Under the pieces are notes generated by a model that saw only the letters and a list, made by a program, of their open reading frames with translations, did not search any database and was not told the DNA's origin. A stretch of 64,000 bases of DNA from Euglena gracilis (taxonomy: Eukaryota): positions 25,680,954 to 25,744,953 of the forward strand of contig CP154954.1 in NCBI GenBank assembly GCA_039621445.1, given 5' to 3'. This document shows positions 970 through 43,396 of the stretch, piece after piece; positions within the stretch are counted from its first letter, which is position 1, and each line of letters begins with the position of its first letter. Both the position numbers and the translations under genes were made by a program.

Positions 970-1051
970 ACATACAATAACAAACAAAAAAACGTCTGTA
1001 TGGGTCAGCAGGCAGCTTGTAGCGGAATCTGAGGTGAGCGACCCCTCGCAC

Positions 1052-1160
1052 CGCACGGAGGTGCAGTTCACGTCGCCTGCCCAGGGGATCTCCGGCAGGA
1101 TGCGGAGGTGCCGGGGCGTGCCGTAGTACTTCGCGTTGGGGTAGCTGGCGAAAAACGGGC
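1052..1160 (-). CDS. MBL-like gene exon 4 (RPFFASYPNAKYYGTPRHL...TSV)
   Basis: Ends at a conventional donor CG|GTGCGA. Confidence 0.78.
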
Positions 1161-3012
1161 AAGGCGGCCGAGGCACCGCCACAGAGGCATCACCCTGTGG
1201 AGCTGTAGTCCCAACACATTCATTCCCATCCAAGAGACGAACCATATGAAAGGAGTGGAATGGAGTGGGGGAGTGGGGGATTAAACCCGCAATTGGAGAC
1301 CCCCTGGGGGGGTGGGCATCTATTTGGGTCCCCTGACCAAAAAAAGAAGCACCTGGATTATGGCTGTTCCAGGGTTCGAAAGGGTCAAAAATATAAAAAA
1401 AATGCTTTGGGTTGATGGGCGATGATCTTCAAACGCTGGTGATTTTTTTTCAGGGTTTGGGCCATTTTTGCTGAGAAATCTCCGACTTATCACAAATTAT
1501 TCGGGCGAAATTTCGAGGAACTGCGCGAAGGGCTTGAATTTTTGTTGCTGTTGGGGGAGAGGGCTGTTACTTGATTTTGTAGAAAAAGACTGGGGAGGTA
1601 TTTAGGAGGGATTCCAAATGAACGGACATTTCCCAGGTCCTGGGCACATCCAGCGTGGGCACCCACTGCCTGTGCAAAGAGAGAGGCGGGCAACGCAGCA
1701 ACTCCAGAGCCTCCGCCGGCGGAAGGCGAGGGTGTGGAAGGGGTGGGTGGCGATCACCGCCTCGATCTTCCGGCCGTTCCGGGCAGGGGCCCCGCCCGGG
1801 AAGAGGGAAGCCGGCCGCGGTGGGGAACGCGTGGCAGGCAGAACGAAAGATGCGGAGACCGGGAGTGGCGTGGGGCCAAACCAAACCCGACGGGGTGGGG
1901 ACATTGCAGTGAATCAACAGCAGCAGGCCATCCACGGCATCGGACCCCAACCGGTCTGTGGCACCGAACGCTGGCCGATGTGAGACCCGCGTGGTGGGAC
2001 CCAAGGGGAGGGGCTCTGGGCGTCAGTGAGGCGATCGAACTCCGCCTTCGCGCCGGGCTCCAGCTTGACGGTGTCGATCACCAGAAAGTTCCCGTTGGGG
2101 AGGCTGGCCCCAGCCAGGCGGTGTCCTCCCTCCGTCGCCAGCCCCGGGGGAGGGGGTCAGGGTTCGACATAAGTCCCAACACCCCCCCCCCTTCTGGTCA
2201 AGGGGGTGGGGAGGAAAACCTCCTCCCAGGTTGGCAGGGGGTTCGAGGTTCGAAACGGCATAATTGGCGGTTCTTTGGGGGCATTTTTGCCATTTCAATT
2301 TTTTGGGGGGTATCTGGTTTGACCCGCTGTTGGTCCCAGATCCAGGTGGCCAGCCTCCAGGGCAACTTTTCCAGCCTCTGAGCTGCCCACCCCCCTCCGG
2401 GGTTGCTAAGCGACGCCCGACGAGTTTTCGTTCTTGTCCAGGGTGGATGGTGACGGATTCGTTGGACTTTGGAGGGGCAAAACGGAGGTGCCCAAAATGG
2501 GCGAAAAAAGGTCGAAAATGGCTTCCGAGCTGCCAGGGACCCCATCCAGCTGAAAGCGACACCCTGGCAACTTTACATTGATCTCTGGGGGGGGGGGGCG
2601 TTCTGCTGTGGAAATGGAGATGAGACAGCAAATGGAACGTTACTCAAAAACAGTGACTGTGAATTTGTTTAAAGCACACACACACACACACACACACACA
2701 TACCCACTCAGGGCTGTACAGGAAGTCCTGGCAGGGGGGTCCACCTGCCCGCTCATTATTGGACCGCAAAAAGAAAACTCCTTCGGTGCAGAATTTTCAA
2801 CCTGGCCCCTCCCCCAGAAAAACGGGAAGGGGCGGCGCACCCCCACCCAACAGGAAGGGGGGGTCTTCCACCTTGTCTCTGGTGGTGGTGCCGGGCTGGT
2901 CGCAGACCGACATGTGCGTCCTGATGTCGACCAAGCCCAACGCCACTTTGAACGGTGCGCGTAGGTTGAAGAAGCCGGGGCCGATGGCCACGAAATGTTC
3001 CAGCCGCTCCAT
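1052..3012 (-). CDS. Metallo-beta-lactamase-fold-like protein (HPFH motif family), first 4 exons; gene continues beyond the window start
   Basis: Exons 3012-2902, 2105-2022, 1778-1721 and 1160-1052 join in frame to MERLEHFVAIGPGFFNLRAPFKVALGLVDIRTHMSVC-SLPNGNFLVIDTVKLEPGAKAEFDRLTD-NGRKIEAVIATHPFHTLAF-RPFFASYPNAKYYGTPRHLRILPEIPWAGDVNCTSV. From memory this resembles an uncharacterised MBL-fold family (G-F-x-N-x-R...D...H-P-F-H...Y-G-x-x-R-H). Codons are GC3-rich. Confidence 0.8.
1161..1720 (-). other. Nonconventional (euglenid-type) intron 3
   Basis: TTCC|gccGGCggaggc...gcctcgGCCgcctt|GCCCG; GGC/GCC pair at +4/-8, 9/10-bp stem; junction can slide by up to 3 nt. Confidence 0.68.
1721..1778 (-). 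CDS. MBL-like gene exon 3 (NGRKIEAVIATHPFHTLAF)
   Basis: HPFH motif; flanked by structured non-GT-AG introns. Confidence 0.78.
1779..2021 (-). other. Nonconventional (euglenid-type) intron 2
   Basis: GAC|gccCAGagcccc...ggggcccCTGcccgg|AAC; CAG/CTG at +4/-8, extended GC stem, restores frame. Confidence 0.72.
2022..2105 (-). CDS. MBL-like gene exon 2 (SLPNGNFLVIDTVKL...RLTD)
   Basis: In frame with exons 1 and 3 only when nonconventional junctions are used. Confidence 0.75.
2106..2901 (-). other. Nonconventional (euglenid-type) intron 1
   Basis: TGC|gacCAGcccggc...gcctggCTGgggcc|AGC; +4..6 CAG pairs with -8..-6 CTG, 9/10-bp terminal stem, Y|R at both junctions, restores frame. Confidence 0.75.
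2902..3012 (-). CDS. MBL-like gene exon 1 (MERLEHFVAIG...THMSVC)
   Basis: ATG at 3012, 10 nt after a pyrimidine tract plus CAG; ends at nonconventional intron 1. Confidence 0.75.
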
Positions 3013-3022
3013 GTGTCCAGGC

Positions 3023-3043
3023 CTGGACAGCCGGAGAGAAGGG
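3023..3043 (-). promoter_or_regulatory. Pyrimidine tract plus AG acceptor just upstream of the MBL-like ATG (possible spliced-leader trans-splice site)
   Basis: ccttctctccggctgtccag|GCCTGGACACATG; euglenozoans add a spliced leader at such sites (inference). Confidence 0.4.
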
Positions 3044-3853
3044 CGTGGCAAGCACAGGAGAGCGGGGGGGGGCGTTGCCATTCAGGTTTCCGTGCAAACT
3101 GCCATAGTGGGTTGGTGTCGACCCCCCCCCGGCGGGCCTTCCCGTAGTGGGGCTGCATCTCTCAGACGGAAAGTCGTTGGCAAATCAAGTACGTATCTTT
3201 TGGCGAAAGAAAGGTAATGTGCTTCATTGCCTAACACCCTTCATAATAGGGGCGTTAAATTCCACTGCAGGGGGCAAAACATCAAAAATATACCCGCGCC
3301 CCAAACGCAGCCAGTCAAAGTTAGTATCAACGTATATTTCAAATTTGTGGAACACGCTGTCTGAAACACAACCCCCTATTCAAGAGAAACGAAACCTCGC
3401 AAAACCCCCAGCTGTTAAAGATGTCTCACTAGTTTTTTTTTTGATGCTTTCAAGCAAATTTGCTGAAAACAACATTCCTAAAGAAATGGGGGGGTGCTTG
3501 GAAAACCAATGAACACAAGCATCATGTTGCCTTTCCTTTTACATCCGAAAATGCGTGCACCAATTGTGATCCGTGATGAAGTGCTTCTGAGAAACCAGAA
3601 AGGATCGCATCATACATAGTTGCACCAGACATGAACTATCAGGCCAGCAGGGCTATGGTGCTGCGAGAGGGGTGACGCCGGGATAAGGTGAGCTACGCTG
3701 CCGAGTGCCGGGGACAGCACCGTCCAAAAGACCTGTGGTTTGAGGGCCAACGCTAAGCTGGCCCCCCCGCAGTGAGGGAACGAACCGGGGCAGTGGTGGG
3801 CAGTGGCGGGCAGGGCCATGGGGTTGTGCAACAGTGGCCGGGGGGTCAACGGG

Positions 3854-3959
3854 TCACGGCCCGCGGCGGCCTTTGCCCCGCCCCCGGCCTTTGCCGCGCC
3901 CGCGGCCCCGGCCCTTCCCCCGCCCGCGGCCCCGGCCTTTGCCGAAGCGGGACCCGAAG
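3854..3959 (-). CDS. TOP3B: TOP3B terminal exon, RG-rich tail ([14 protein letters not shown]...RRGP*)
   Basis: cag acceptor at 3960; RG/RGG tail typical of TOP3B; TGA at 3856-3854. Confidence 0.85.
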
Positions 3960-6900
3960 CTGCGAGGGCGAGGGGGCGGCGGGGCAGGCCGAGAACATTC
4001 CGGCGGCGCGCCCAGTGAGGCACCCTCCGACACAGGCAAGTTGAGGCTGACCCGCCCCCGGGAGGGGGGAGGGGTGTTAAACGGTTAAAGTGCCCTGCTG
4101 AGGTGTCTGGGCCAGGCGTGGCCCACCCCCAAGCGTGGGCGGTGTCAAATCCAGCGGGTCGGCACTGCCCCACCCCCCACCTTGCTGGTCTCCAACCCCC
4201 AGGAGGGACTTCGATGTCCGTGGTGCCCATGCGACAATGCAATTTCGGGAATTTTCGGTCCGCAAATGTGATGTGTGCGATGGGAACGCACCCGGGGGGC
4301 ACACCCACCCCCCTTTGTTGTCCCTGGGCCCGGCTGACCGGAGGTTTTTTTTGGCCGCACCTTGACATTTCGCTTGGTACCCAGTCTCCATCGGGGGTCA
4401 CAGGAGACAGGTCAGCCAGACAATAAGGGGGGGAGAGTATTTTTTGGCTTCATGCCCCTTCCCCTCAGTCCCAGCCGCCGGCTGTCGGCTAGCTTGGGGC
4501 ATACAACTCCTCCGCAAAGGCGTTCAGCTCCTCGTCGCACAGGATGCAGCCGGCGTACTCCTCGGGCTTGTCCTTCAGGGGGGACTTGTCCTTCTCAAAG
4601 GTCAGGTGGAGGATGTTGCTGCCGCACCCGTCGCACACGTCGTCCGCGTACACCGTCGCCTCTGCGCCGGAACGCAGCAGGTTAACCCCATTCAGGGCGT
4701 GGTTTAGCGTCCCCCCGCAAGCAGCTTTAGTTAAGCCCAACTTTTGCCCATTTGAGGCCATTGTCAGGCTAAAATAGCCTGACAAGGCCATTTTAGGCCA
4801 TGTCAGGCTATTTTAACCTAAGGTGGGGTTCTTAAGAGCAAAATTTTGAATTTTTTTGTCCCAAAAATCATAACATGTGCGAATCTTCACTTACTCAGCA
4901 GAATTGGACATGAAAGAAAATTCACGGACACTGGATCAAGCCAACAAGGAACTCAACAGTTCTTAATTCACACTCATGGAGGAATTCTGAGTGAAAGAAT
5001 TTATTACAGGAAAAAAATTGTCGGAAAACATGATGATTGAAAAAACCCCGGTTGGGTCAAGCTTAGAGGCTGGAAAATTTGGGCTGGCTGAAAAAAGGCT
5101 GTTGGCGGGCTGGACCCCCCCTCGGAGGGATGTGGTGCCCTCGGACTTAAATGACACCCTGACCCCACCCATGACGGAGAAGCATTGCCCACTGGAGTCA
5201 TGGCCAGTTTTCCCCCCAGGACCCCCCCAGGACCCCCCAAGACCCCCCAAGACCCCCCCAGGACCCCCCCAGGACCCCCCCAGGACAGGGTCCTGGGGGG
5301 GGGGGGGGAGGACTGGCCACAATTGGCCCACTGGCAGCTGAGCCTCAAGAGAACATAAAAAAAATGTGCAACAGAGCCATGGTAGGAGGGAAGGTGCACC
5401 ATCAATGGCAAAATTATATGAGCCCGCCCCGTCGGGTCATCTTTGCATTGGCAACCGGTACCGCCAGGAGCACACTTCTGGTCCCCGCAGGGAACTTGAC
5501 GCTTCTGTTGCAGCTGTTACAATCCTGCCAGGCAAGAGCGATGTCGCTGCATGCATCCATGCATCACAGACACGGGGCAGGGTCGCAAAAAATGCACCGT
5601 CAACGCCCCCTCGAAGTTAAAAAAAAAGATCACATTTCCTCAATTGCCGCCAGAAAAGCCACAAGACGGCAACCCTGTAACGTTTGCAGTGACAAAAAAA
5701 AACACGCACACAATAAAGAAAGGTTCACATCTGACTGATCACCCACGGCGGGGCGGGTGTCACCCGGGAACAGGGATGGCGGCTTAGGGCCACCCCAATT
5801 CTCCATCCTGTGGATGGCGGTGCCGTTTTGCCGGCGGTGGCCGCAAGTCCCCACCCCTGTGACGGCTGTCGCCCCTCCCCCCACTGCCCAAGGAAATGTT
5901 TTTCCACAAATGGGGGTTCGGACCAGTGCATTTGGGTTGGAAAGGGCGGGAGGGGTTCGGCGGGGGGGCGGCTCCCCGACACTTCCTCACCCACGTCAAA
6001 CGTCAGGCAGAGGTCTGGGAAACTGCCAGCGTCGCCCCAGGAGTGGGGGTTGGACATGGAGACACCAAAACCCGATACCAGGACGCATCTGGAGACACCT
6101 TGAGAAGGTAAGAAAGGTACAAACAACAAAAATTATAAAGCTGGCAAACGTTTTGGAAATGGGGGAGAATACCATTCAAAAAAGCTGGGGGAAATGAATG
6201 TATTCCCTCACAGTCGAGACAAAGAAAGGAATATCACCACTCCAGAGCAGATGGAGGACCGGCACACCATTTTCTGCACCTTGGCCCCCACCGGGTCGAT
6301 GACCAGGAACCCGTTGCACGTCATATCCTGGCACGCACACACGCGGTTGTTCACCATCGAGTACTTGCACGTCGGGTGGGCGCAGCTGTTGCACGCCATC
6401 GCTGCGGAGGGGACAAGGTGGTGGAGCGCTGCCTGGGCTCTGTTTTTGCACGGTTTTTTTGAACTTTTACACTGCTTCCAGAGCGGAAAATTAACAACCC
6501 TCCCCACCCACATGACAACCTCAAAAATAACAAAAAAGCAACGAAATTGGCCGGCTCCGTCTCCGGACCTGGGTCTCGGTCTGGGCCTGGGGGGGGGGGT
6601 TCTGGGGGGGGGGGTACGTACCTGGGGTACAACCCCCCCCCCCAATACCTGTTGTACCTGTCCAGGTCCTGGGGGGGTACACGCAGGTACCCCCCCAGTA
6701 CGCAGGGGGGGGGTACATACCTCCCTCACACCGGCGCCGACAAGGCCTATGTCTAAATAGGTACGCACCCCCCAGTACCTGTTGTATCTATACAGGTACA
6801 CGCAGGTCCTGGGGGGGTACACGCAGGTCCTGGGGCGGGTCGGCATAGGTCCTGGGGGGGTACACGCAGGTCCTGGGGGGTACGCATAGGTCCTGGGGGG

Positions 6901-40316: not shown

Positions 40317-42201
40317 GAGGTATAGGTGGGCTTCTGAAAGTAACAGTTTTGCGTCATTTTTGTCCCGAAAACTGTACCATAATGTGTGCAAACCTTCTCT
40401 TATTCAATAATAAGAAATGCTAATCCAAAAAAGCATGCAAAATTCATGAAAACTGGATCAAAACCATGGGAAGCTCAACAAATCTTAATTTCTACCCATA
40501 GAGGAATTCTGAACAGTAAGAGTTTACGGCAGTGAAAATTTTTCAGGAAAAAAAGTTGGACAAATACTAAAAGTTTTTATTTGCGCCCAAAAAAAAGCGC
40601 CTGGTCTTTTTTGTTTTGTGAAATCTACACCATTTTGCGGGAGTTCGCAAAAAAAAAATCATTTTTTTCTGAAAGATGAAGCTGTTGCCTGGTGAAATTC
40701 AATGTGATTTTGGTATTGGTTTAGCCATTTAGTTTCGGCATAAATGAGAGAGGATGGCAGAGATCAAAGGGCAAAGCTGAGAGCAATTCCTCTTCTCCGT
40801 GATTGTTTTCCCCTTTGGGGAAACTTATTACTAAAAAAAAAAAGCCCTCTGAACACGTTCATAAAAAGGAGAGAATCTCATTCATAAATTGTTTGTGATT
40901 GTTTTGGGTCATTTGATCATTCGGCGTGTTTTATTTGTGGTTTTGGAAAAACCCCAAAATTTTGCTGGTTCGTGATTTGAAGGAATCCCCGGCACCTGAC
41001 GAATAAGCATACACATCTTTCAATGGAGATTTTTCCAACATCTTTCATCTTTTTTTCCTCTCTTTTTACCCATGCTTCCAAATTTGCACTGTTTCATTAT
41101 TTGTGAAACAGACATGATTTCACACCAAAAAAAACTGGGAGTAAGAAGAAATACAGCTGTCCAAACCTTCAAAATTCAGTTACCAAAAGCAGGTTGGGCA
41201 CCGTGGATTTGGGGACTGATACTATTATGAGTTGGGATTAAAAAAAAGGTCTTGTGGGGCTGTGCTCCTTCACCAAATCCACTGTTTGCAGTCCACATTA
41301 ACAAAAGACACCGAAAATCATTACCTGAATAGCTTCAGTTGTTCACAAAAAAATTATTGTGCAACAGAATTTTTCCCATTTTCGGCCATTTTCGGCCATT
41401 TTAGGCCATTTTAGGCCATTTTAGGCCATTTTAGGCCATTTTAGGCCATATAGGTGCCTAGTCATGAGCTCCCCCACCCTCCCTCCCTCTTGCTCATGAG
41501 CTCCCTCCCCCTCCCACTTCCCACCACTCCCCCCCCCCTCAGGCCTCCCCCGTCCCCCCCCCCCCCCCCCGCCGTTTGGGCTCTCAAAAAACCTCCCCTC
41601 CCCAGTCCCGCCACACCCCCCCCCCCACCCCCCAGCCTCCAGCCCAAGCAGCCCAACGGGGTAGAGGGTCCCAGGCCTTAATTTAGGTCCCCCAATTACT
41701 TTCATTGGTTACCCACTGTTTTCAAGAAAATTAAAAATGGTGGTGGCTCAGCCCAAAAAAACTGTTAAGTCGAGAGAAAACCAAAACAATGCAAAACGGG
41801 CCAAATCGAAGGGGCGCAAGTGACCCTGGAGGATTATATGTGGCGAAAGAGGGTCACCTTGAGGGTTTATATTTTGGTTTCCATTGATTTTCTTTTGATC
41901 CCAACAATTATCAAGACATTGAAAAAAATTGGTTTTTCACCCCGAAACGACCGAAATCGCCTTGGTCGAAACAGTTCAAAACAGGCTGTTGTTGGGGTTT
42001 ATACCATCATTAAATGGTCATAACTCAGGCTAGCCACGGAGTTACAAGAAAATCTGAAAATTTGTACCACACCCCCCCCCCCCCCCGCAAACCACCGCTC
42101 ACTTAATACCCTGTATGGCTTGCTGGTTTTTCAAATATTGTAAACCCCCCTGAAAGAGCGCATGGGTGCGCAAATTTTAAGGACATGGTTTCGGACCCCA
42201 C

Positions 42202-43089
<888 letters not shown>

Positions 43090-43396
43090 CAGGTGCCCAT
43101 ATTAGGGCACTGCGCACCTATTAGGGGAAAGCACAAGATACTTAATCTTCCACCACTCTTTTTCAGCTTTTCCCTTCCTGTAATGTCAAGCAATGAGTCA
43201 AGTGATTAAGTGTCAAATTTGGGCTTAAACGATGGAAGTATTTGGAGAAAGAGAGATCTGAGAATTGTGTGTGCTTGGTGACCTGAGATGTGACACTAAT
43301 TTCTCCTTTTGTGGAGCGGTGTACTTTTAGGAGGTAGTTTCAGACCACTTATTAGGGCTGTGCATAATTTGGGCACTGCGCACTTATTAGAGAGGC

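Follow-up and report, generated by a model that had tools for sequence, protein, structure and literature searches.

Evidence for three nonconventional introns in a DUF4336/MBL-like gene of Euglena gracilis or a very close relative

Within a 64,000-nucleotide stretch of DNA (the window), three consecutive segments interrupt a minus-strand gene and are almost certainly genuine euglenid nonconventional introns, the host being a nuclear gene for a DUF4336/MBL-like protein in Euglena gracilis or a very close relative. Their removal from RNA, their exact junctions, their non-canonical ends, and the in-register complementarity of those ends were all demonstrated here. A sequence-only reading had proposed that the MBL-like reading frame closes once positions 2901 to 2106 (intron 1), 2021 to 1779 (intron 2), and 1720 to 1161 (intron 3) are taken out; RNA does skip 796, 243, and 560 bases at these places, and the joined product agrees with a known Euglena protein at all but one residue, as described below.

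RNA data came from two raw runs under the same species label, belonging to two studies (X21 and X24), and from an older transcript-like contig set belonging to a third (X2). They were compared over positions 1001 to 3200 of the window with the best-matching DNA run (X20). The RNA shows exactly three joints in this interval. The joint from 2105 to 2902, which skips 796 bases and can be slid by 1 base, was seen in 82 reads of X21 and 22 of X24; the joint from 1778 to 2022, which skips 243 bases and cannot be slid, in 79 and 21 reads, respectively; and the joint from 1157 to 1718, which skips 560 bases and can be slid by 3, in 45 and 16 reads. Each joint was also found in one X2 contig, and a single 1133-base contig of this set carries all three. 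RNA depth was zero in each of the 18 bins lying wholly inside introns, and in all three RNA data sets every border-crossing read showed the joint and no read entered an intron. The three segments are removed from the RNA precisely and completely. The first mates of X24 mapped to the plus strand only, which fits RNA transcribed from the minus strand. Mapping of RNA-seq reads had been proposed as the check on the predicted junctions; all three were seen, and no GT-AG micro-exon junctions appeared.

Since introns 1 and 3 share one and three identical bases, respectively, at both of their borders, the joints might be attributed to reverse transcriptase switching templates at short direct repeats. 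This explanation is extremely unlikely, given that intron 2 has no border repeat at all, that the border-crossing reads of three RNA data sets were uniformly joined rather than intronic, and that joining restores a reading frame which fungal homologues and a second euglenid transcript protein have conserved.

The identity of the host gene was established by a protein search with the fourth coding piece, which returned P0006, a 282-residue protein named EG_transcript_20317 and assigned to Pfam PF14234 (DUF4336). The "EG_transcript_" style of name is Euglena gracilis usage in PMC6366073. The same search returned P0007, a close relative from another transcriptome, together with fungal and other homologues, and 4 of the 13 protein hits carried precomputed PF14234 labels. 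Aligned by tblastn, residues 1 to 37, 38 to 65, 66 to 85, and 86 to 121 of P0006 fell on 3012 to 2902, 2105 to 2022, 1778 to 1719, and 1158 to 1051, whereas residues 122 to 282 were unmatched in the window. Exons joined at the coordinates of the sequence-only reading encode 120 residues, 119 of which are identical to P0006; the sole mismatch (A89/T89) corresponds to a variant among the RNA reads at position 1149. P0006 scored 29.2 bits against the DUF4336 model (gathering cut-off, 28.5), its best-matching stretch being residues 204 to 244 only, which lie outside the window. The four in-window exon pieces, searched singly against Pfam, gave no match because they are too short, and a sequence search of solved structures with the host protein likewise returned no match.

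In the resulting gene model, all features lie on the minus strand. Exon 1 (2902 to 3022) comprises a 10-base 5' untranslated region and codons 1 to 37, with the ATG at 3012 to 3010, as indicated by translation, tblastn of P0006, RNA depth, and a contig piece spanning 2902 to 3023. It is followed by intron 1 (2106 to 2901; 796 nt, phase 0), which reads GAC-CAG...CTG-GGGCC before an exon A. Exon 2 (2022 to 2105) holds codons 38 to 65 and precedes intron 2 (1779 to 2021; 243 nt, phase 0), which reads GCC-CAG...CTG-CCCGG, again before an exon A. Exon 3 (1721 to 1778) holds codons 66 to 84 and the first base of codon 85. Intron 3 (560 nt) is in phase 1 in register 1161 to 1720, where it reads GCC-GGC...GCC-GCCTT before an exon G, and exon 4 (1052 to 1160) carries the remainder of codon 85 through the first two bases of codon 121. 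The three introns are each defined by an RNA joint, and exons 2 to 4 are supported by reading frame, tblastn, and RNA alike. The fit of the RNA to the window ends at 1052 in 48 and 32 reads and in one X2 contig, all of which continue into sequence outside the window. Because the genomic sequence at this point reads GTGCGAG, a fourth intron starts at 1051. Its 5' part (positions 1 to 1051) looks conventional at the 5' end, judging from its first bases, and contains (ACAG)58 and (CACG)18 microsatellites. The window stops short of the 3' end of intron 4 and of the remaining 161 codons, which are located past its first base.

The 5' end of the mRNA carries a trans-splicing mark. Thirty X21 reads had a loose end behind position 3023 that reads, on the RNA strand, A, eight T, C, and then G at 3023, a match to the conserved 3'-terminal sequence of the E. 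gracilis spliced leader (PMC4778363). Since the reads continue into the spliced-leader tail at 3023, the mRNA is trans-spliced at the AG at 3024 to 3023, where the outron acceptor reads CAG. We infer that the cut falls after this AG, so that the mRNA body would begin at 3022, ten bases ahead of the ATG at 3012.

These observations also bear on whether the joined RNA might derive from an intron-less retrocopy or paralogue elsewhere in the genome rather than from splicing at this locus. RNA reads vary at 8 exon positions, at frequencies of roughly 20 to 70%, and more than one allele or copy is thus expressed; moreover, contigs from a DNA run can miss minor forms. However, none of the X20 DNA contigs carries any of the three joints, and these contigs run unbroken, in the unspliced form, across all six exon/intron borders. 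X20 may be the source sample of the window itself and so does not independently support the genomic sequence. A good share of the RNA reads also agree with the window at the variant sites, reads carry a spliced leader attached at a genomic AG, and GT follows, as in an intron, at the next junction (1052). Taken together, these findings from the DNA run, the RNA reads, and the window make an intron-less source very unlikely, and splicing at the locus is strongly favored.

Recomputing the spliced product with slid borders gave two equivalent registers for intron 1 (the alternative being 2107 to 2902), one for intron 2, and four for intron 3 (from 1161 to 1720 down to 1158 to 1717), the last of these being slidable by 3 because GCC is repeated at both borders. 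The proposed coordinates are accordingly exact for intron 2, whereas for introns 1 and 3 they are one of two and one of four equivalent choices, ambiguous by 1 and 3 bases. In each intron they correspond to the register that places a purine at the start of the next exon. Intron 1 has the ends GA..CC or CG..GC, depending on the register; intron 2 has GC..GG; and intron 3 has GC..TT, CC..TG, CG..GC, or GG..CC. None of the seven registers (2 + 1 + 4) has GT-AG, GC-AG, or AT-AC ends, so the claim that GT-AG ends are lacking holds in every register. In the register of the sequence-only reading, the upstream exons all end in C, the introns all begin with G, and the next exons begin with A, A, and G, as that reading had described. 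The pyrimidine|purine border rule is followed at four of four positions in introns 1 and 3 and at three of four in intron 2, which ends in G. Inspection of the first six bases (GACCAG, GCCCAG, and GCCGGC) against the GTGTG consensus, used as a proxy for U1 complementarity, revealed no GTGTG-type 5' motif.

A junction search based on homology only, with the two orthologues P0007 and P0009, recovered the RNA-defined borders and found a GT-AG or GC-AG solution at none of the three junctions, even within 6 score units. Splicing through overlooked micro-exons or alternative GT-AG sites was rejected as well, given that the reads join the exons directly and that no canonical solution lies within that margin.

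The ends of the three introns are complementary at the positions expected of nonconventional introns. In the purine register, bases +4 to +6 pair with bases -8 to -6 by strict Watson-Crick rules in all three introns (CAG/CTG, CAG/CTG, and GGC/GCC), precisely the combinations noted from the sequence beforehand. Over positions +3 to +12, with G-U counted, 9, 7, and 9 of 10 positions are paired in register in introns 1, 2, and 3, respectively. As a chance control, 4000 random pseudo-introns of each length were sampled from the two strands of the window. Strict core pairing occurred in 1.6%, 2.2%, and 1.8% of these, and in 2.5%, 3.4%, and 3.8% of pseudo-introns with GC-matched ends. From these rates, pairing in three of three introns would arise by chance with a probability of ~6e-6 to 3e-5, or at most ~3e-4 when eight register combinations are allowed for.

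The stability of the stem is weaker evidence. The terminal duplex energies (-22.4, -22.5, and -23.3 kcal/mol) were attained by 13%, 32%, and 8% of the GC-matched controls, so the duplex energy alone is unexceptional for ends so rich in GC. When whole introns were folded with 10-base flanks, the predicted probability of the terminal helix was 0.77 for intron 1, where the helix is present in the minimum free energy fold, 0.0002 for intron 2, and 0.22 for intron 3; enforcing the helix was calculated to cost 0, 3.9, and 0.7 kcal/mol, respectively. The helix of intron 2 is interrupted (7/10) and hardly figures in the ensemble predicted for the entire intron, which as a whole folded no better than shuffled sequences (z = +1.21). 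For the stem of about 10 bp that had been suggested, modeled folding of the whole introns gives support in intron 1 only.

The definition of euglenid nonconventional introns is reportedly that of Milanowski et al. (PMC3935182). In PMC4770533, such introns are characterized by pairing between +4, +5, +6 and -8, -7, -6, which brings the borders together and takes the form CAG/CTG in 33 of 55 introns, and by border preferences that admit exceptions, namely, pyrimidine|purine at both borders and often C as the third base of the next exon. The three introns resemble this type in their non-canonical borders, in the +4 to +6/-8 to -6 pairing, and in their variable length (243 to 796 nt). CAG/CTG occurs in two of three. 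In three of three, the upstream exon ends in a pyrimidine, the intron and the downstream exon each begin with a purine, and the third base of the downstream exon is C. Two departures are seen, both of which have precedent in the same source: the last base of intron 2 is G where a pyrimidine is preferred, a kind of deviation found in 6 of the 55 introns, and intron 3 has GGC/GCC, pairings other than CAG/CTG accounting for 22 of the 55 (PMC4770533).

A more recent definition distinguishes among the three introns. Using knock-in mutagenesis in E. gracilis, Nomura et al. (2025) derived the code 5'-N3CDG-/-CH'GN5-6|R, which occurs in 61.2% of nonconventional introns; when the CDG/CH'G letters carried point changes, one test intron was no longer spliced (PMC12501133). 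An exact fit to this code is seen in introns 1 and 2, with 3-base and 5-base spacers and an A at the start of the next exon, and both have additional pairing inward of the motif. In contrast, intron 3 fails the code in all four registers. Register 1718 to 1159 places CGG...CCG at spacers of 3 and 6 but leaves C as the first base of the following exon; in the purine register, CGG/CCG lies one step outward (spacers of 2 and 4), and GGC/GCC occupies the canonical slots. Intron 3 thus fits the older pairing rule only, and since the code covers 61.2% of nonconventional introns, it belongs among the remaining 38.8%. The signature of euglenid nonconventional introns that had been recognized in the sequence is accordingly upheld for all three by the pairing and border rule as given in PMC4770533, and for introns 1 and 2 also by the CDG/CH'G code.

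Conventional E. gracilis introns, as characterized in PMC11170887, have GT-AG or GC-AG ends, a GTGTG 5' motif, a C-rich tract, and a CAG 3' end. The same genes can hold both kinds, and in the present gene intron 4 begins GTGCGAG, whereas introns 1 to 3 bear none of the conventional marks. "Intermediate" euglenid introns have also been proposed (Canaday et al. 2001, as described in PMC4770533). Introns 2 and 3, in the register of the sequence-only reading, resemble these in starting with GC and having an end-pairing helix, but neither ends in AG; the GT or GC start of "intermediate" introns has itself been argued to reflect a mere preference for a purine at +1 rather than a separate type (PMC4770533).

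A topoisomerase III-like gene upstream on the same strand provided a contrast within the window. This gene was recognized from 23 tblastn pieces of P0019 extending from 34285 to 4501, and one of its exons matched the Pfam Topoisom_bac model at 34.2 bits, slightly below the cut-off of 35.1. In the same kind of junction search as for the three introns, every in-frame, stop-free join near 21 of the 22 consecutive pairs of pieces was scored against P0019, one pair being omitted for a gap in the query. GT-AG borders were co-optimal at 14 junctions and GC-AG borders at 2 (16/21), these junctions being inferred from a homologue 57 to 93% identical per piece and not from RNA. Canonical borders lay within 6 score units at 4 further junctions and were absent at one, and at none of the 21 was the nonconventional code co-optimal. 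For comparison, the background over 69,583 trial joins was 0.87% for canonical borders, 0.18% for the code, and 1.8% for core pairing. At many of the junctions GTGTG is present, as is a C-rich tract ahead of CAG, and on this sequence evidence the neighboring gene appears to use mostly conventional introns.

These data also help to evaluate whether introns 1 to 3 are spliceosomal introns with unusual ends (non-canonical U2 type or U12 type), the end complementarity being a by-product of GC-rich sequence. Several observations lean that way: the terminal duplex energies are ordinary for GC-matched ends; the helix of intron 2 is not predicted in the full-length fold; introns 2 and 3 begin, in the register of the sequence-only reading, with GC, which the spliceosome can use; and spliceosome independence of the class has been inferred rather than proven (PMC11170887). 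However, in no register does an intron begin with GT or AT or finish with AG or AC, and the GTGTG motif and the C-rich tract with CAG, both visible at the inferred GT-AG introns of the neighboring gene, are absent from introns 1 to 3. In addition, in-register pairing in three of three introns has a chance probability of ~1e-5, and two of the three match a code that mutagenesis has shown to drive such splicing (PMC12501133). We therefore regard spliceosomal introns with unusual ends as quite improbable and favor nonconventional introns for all three segments.

The results are consistent with a model that largely follows the published one. The gene would be transcribed from the minus strand and the spliced leader then added at the AG at 3024 to 3023, and the three segments would be excised precisely and completely. 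The cut sites would be set neither by GT-AG nor by U1 complementarity; instead, a helix between the intron ends, formed by +4 to +6 with -8 to -6 plus inward pairs, would draw the borders together, so that the 5' cut would lie 3 bases ahead of the core of the helix and the 3' cut 5 bases past it, just before a purine. According to the knock-in mutagenesis, the machinery recognizes the helix together with its spacers (PMC12501133). By analogy with the published model, excision would probably be carried out by a non-spliceosomal activity, the intron probably leaving as a circle. X21 and X24 contained no backward joints and no intron reads, but as cDNA RNA-seq libraries sampled at 5 to 6%, they are uninformative on circular intron RNA. 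Nonconventional introns are reportedly removed after spliceosomal ones (PMC6221363). The Discussion of PMC12501133 bears out the view that the splicing machinery is unidentified, stating that the trans-acting factors of nonconventional splicing are unknown, and our literature searches found no later paper naming the machinery.

A search of metagenome contigs for orthologous genomic loci gave 156 pattern matches, none of which was confirmed. When the introns were compared with the remainder of the window, only one shared repeat emerged, a 21-base match, with no sign of a transposon family, and a DNA-depth spike in intron 1 suggests a repeat present genome-wide. No Rfam family was found in the whole window, and the introns contain no known snoRNA or similar RNA.

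In published catalogues, nonconventional introns predominate. Of 28,337 E. gracilis introns, 16,151 (4,498 + 11,653; 57%) are nonconventional, and the catalogued examples show CCAGG at +3 to +7 and CCTG at -9 to -6 (PMC11170887). In E. agilis, 71.8% of introns are nonconventional (PMC12501133), or about 466,000 by subtraction (649,158 minus 182,776). Since the class makes up more than half of catalogued Euglena introns, introns 1 to 3 are ordinary examples of a class that is already known and that forms the majority of Euglena introns, and they may themselves already be present in published data sets, such as Datasets S5 to S8 of PMC12501133, with its improved E. gracilis gene set.

The significance of the three introns accordingly reaches little beyond correct annotation of the gene, which gene finders expecting GT-AG would fragment. 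For annotators, the locus offers a guide in the order of its features, namely, a spliced-leader acceptor, three nonconventional introns, and then an intron with a GT start, and the window sets this gene side by side with a neighbor whose introns appear to be mostly conventional. The question of which enzyme removes introns of this class is not brought closer, with intron 3 as the one exception. Only mildly unusual in itself, intron 3 provides a clean natural example that the published sequence code does not cover. It is removed as fully as the other two introns, with zero intron reads, yet lacks CDG/CH'G letters at the spacing that mutagenesis showed to be needed. Unless it is simply one of many unexplained exceptions, this suggests a possibility that we raise tentatively and hold to be less than probable: that the splicing machinery places its cuts by the geometry of the terminal helix and does not read a CAG/CTG-type motif. 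If this is true, intron 3 would be a ready natural substrate for testing helix geometry in the published knock-in assay.

When RNA reads from two raw runs (X21 and X24) were placed on positions 1001 to 3200, eight exon positions of the minus-strand DUF4336/MBL-like gene (1132, 1149, 1730, 1758, 2052, 2088, 2956 and 2962) carried a second letter at roughly 20 to 70%. Therefore, at least two alleles or copies of this gene are expressed, and the three intron junctions are common to all of them. The variant at position 1149 changes Ala89 to Thr, the residue present in P0006, the 282-residue E. gracilis transcript protein (EG_transcript_20317).

Within intron 1 of the gene, summed contig depth in the DNA run X20 reached 644 at positions 2333 to 2406, relative to ~20 to 100 in the remaining bins. 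This depth suggests that the interval is a short element with many copies across the genome; a repeat search of the rest of the 64-kb window found no further copy of it. Intron 4 contains two adjacent tetranucleotide microsatellites (positions 675 to 969), which read on the plus strand as ~18 copies of CACG and ~58 copies of ACAG.

The topoisomerase III-like gene, placed by homology on the minus strand at positions 4501 to 34285, lies immediately upstream of the DUF4336/MBL-like gene. Between the two genes, GC-rich tandem repeats with periods of 18 and 24 occupy positions 3867 to 3944; the spliced-leader acceptor lies ~850 bases downstream of them. Farther away, ~1 kb of trinucleotide-type low-complexity sequence (positions 42131 to 43209) reads without a stop codon in each of the six frames, giving runs of Q, A, S, L and C, and an Rfam scan of the full 64 kb returned no families at the gathering score.

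The exons of the topoisomerase III-like gene, in 23 or more pieces, extend across ~30 kb, and some of its predicted introns are long (8,373, 3,413 and 3,204 bases). Judging from homology, the majority of its introns are probably GT-AG or GC-AG, and GTGTG starts and C-rich tracts accompany these putative introns.
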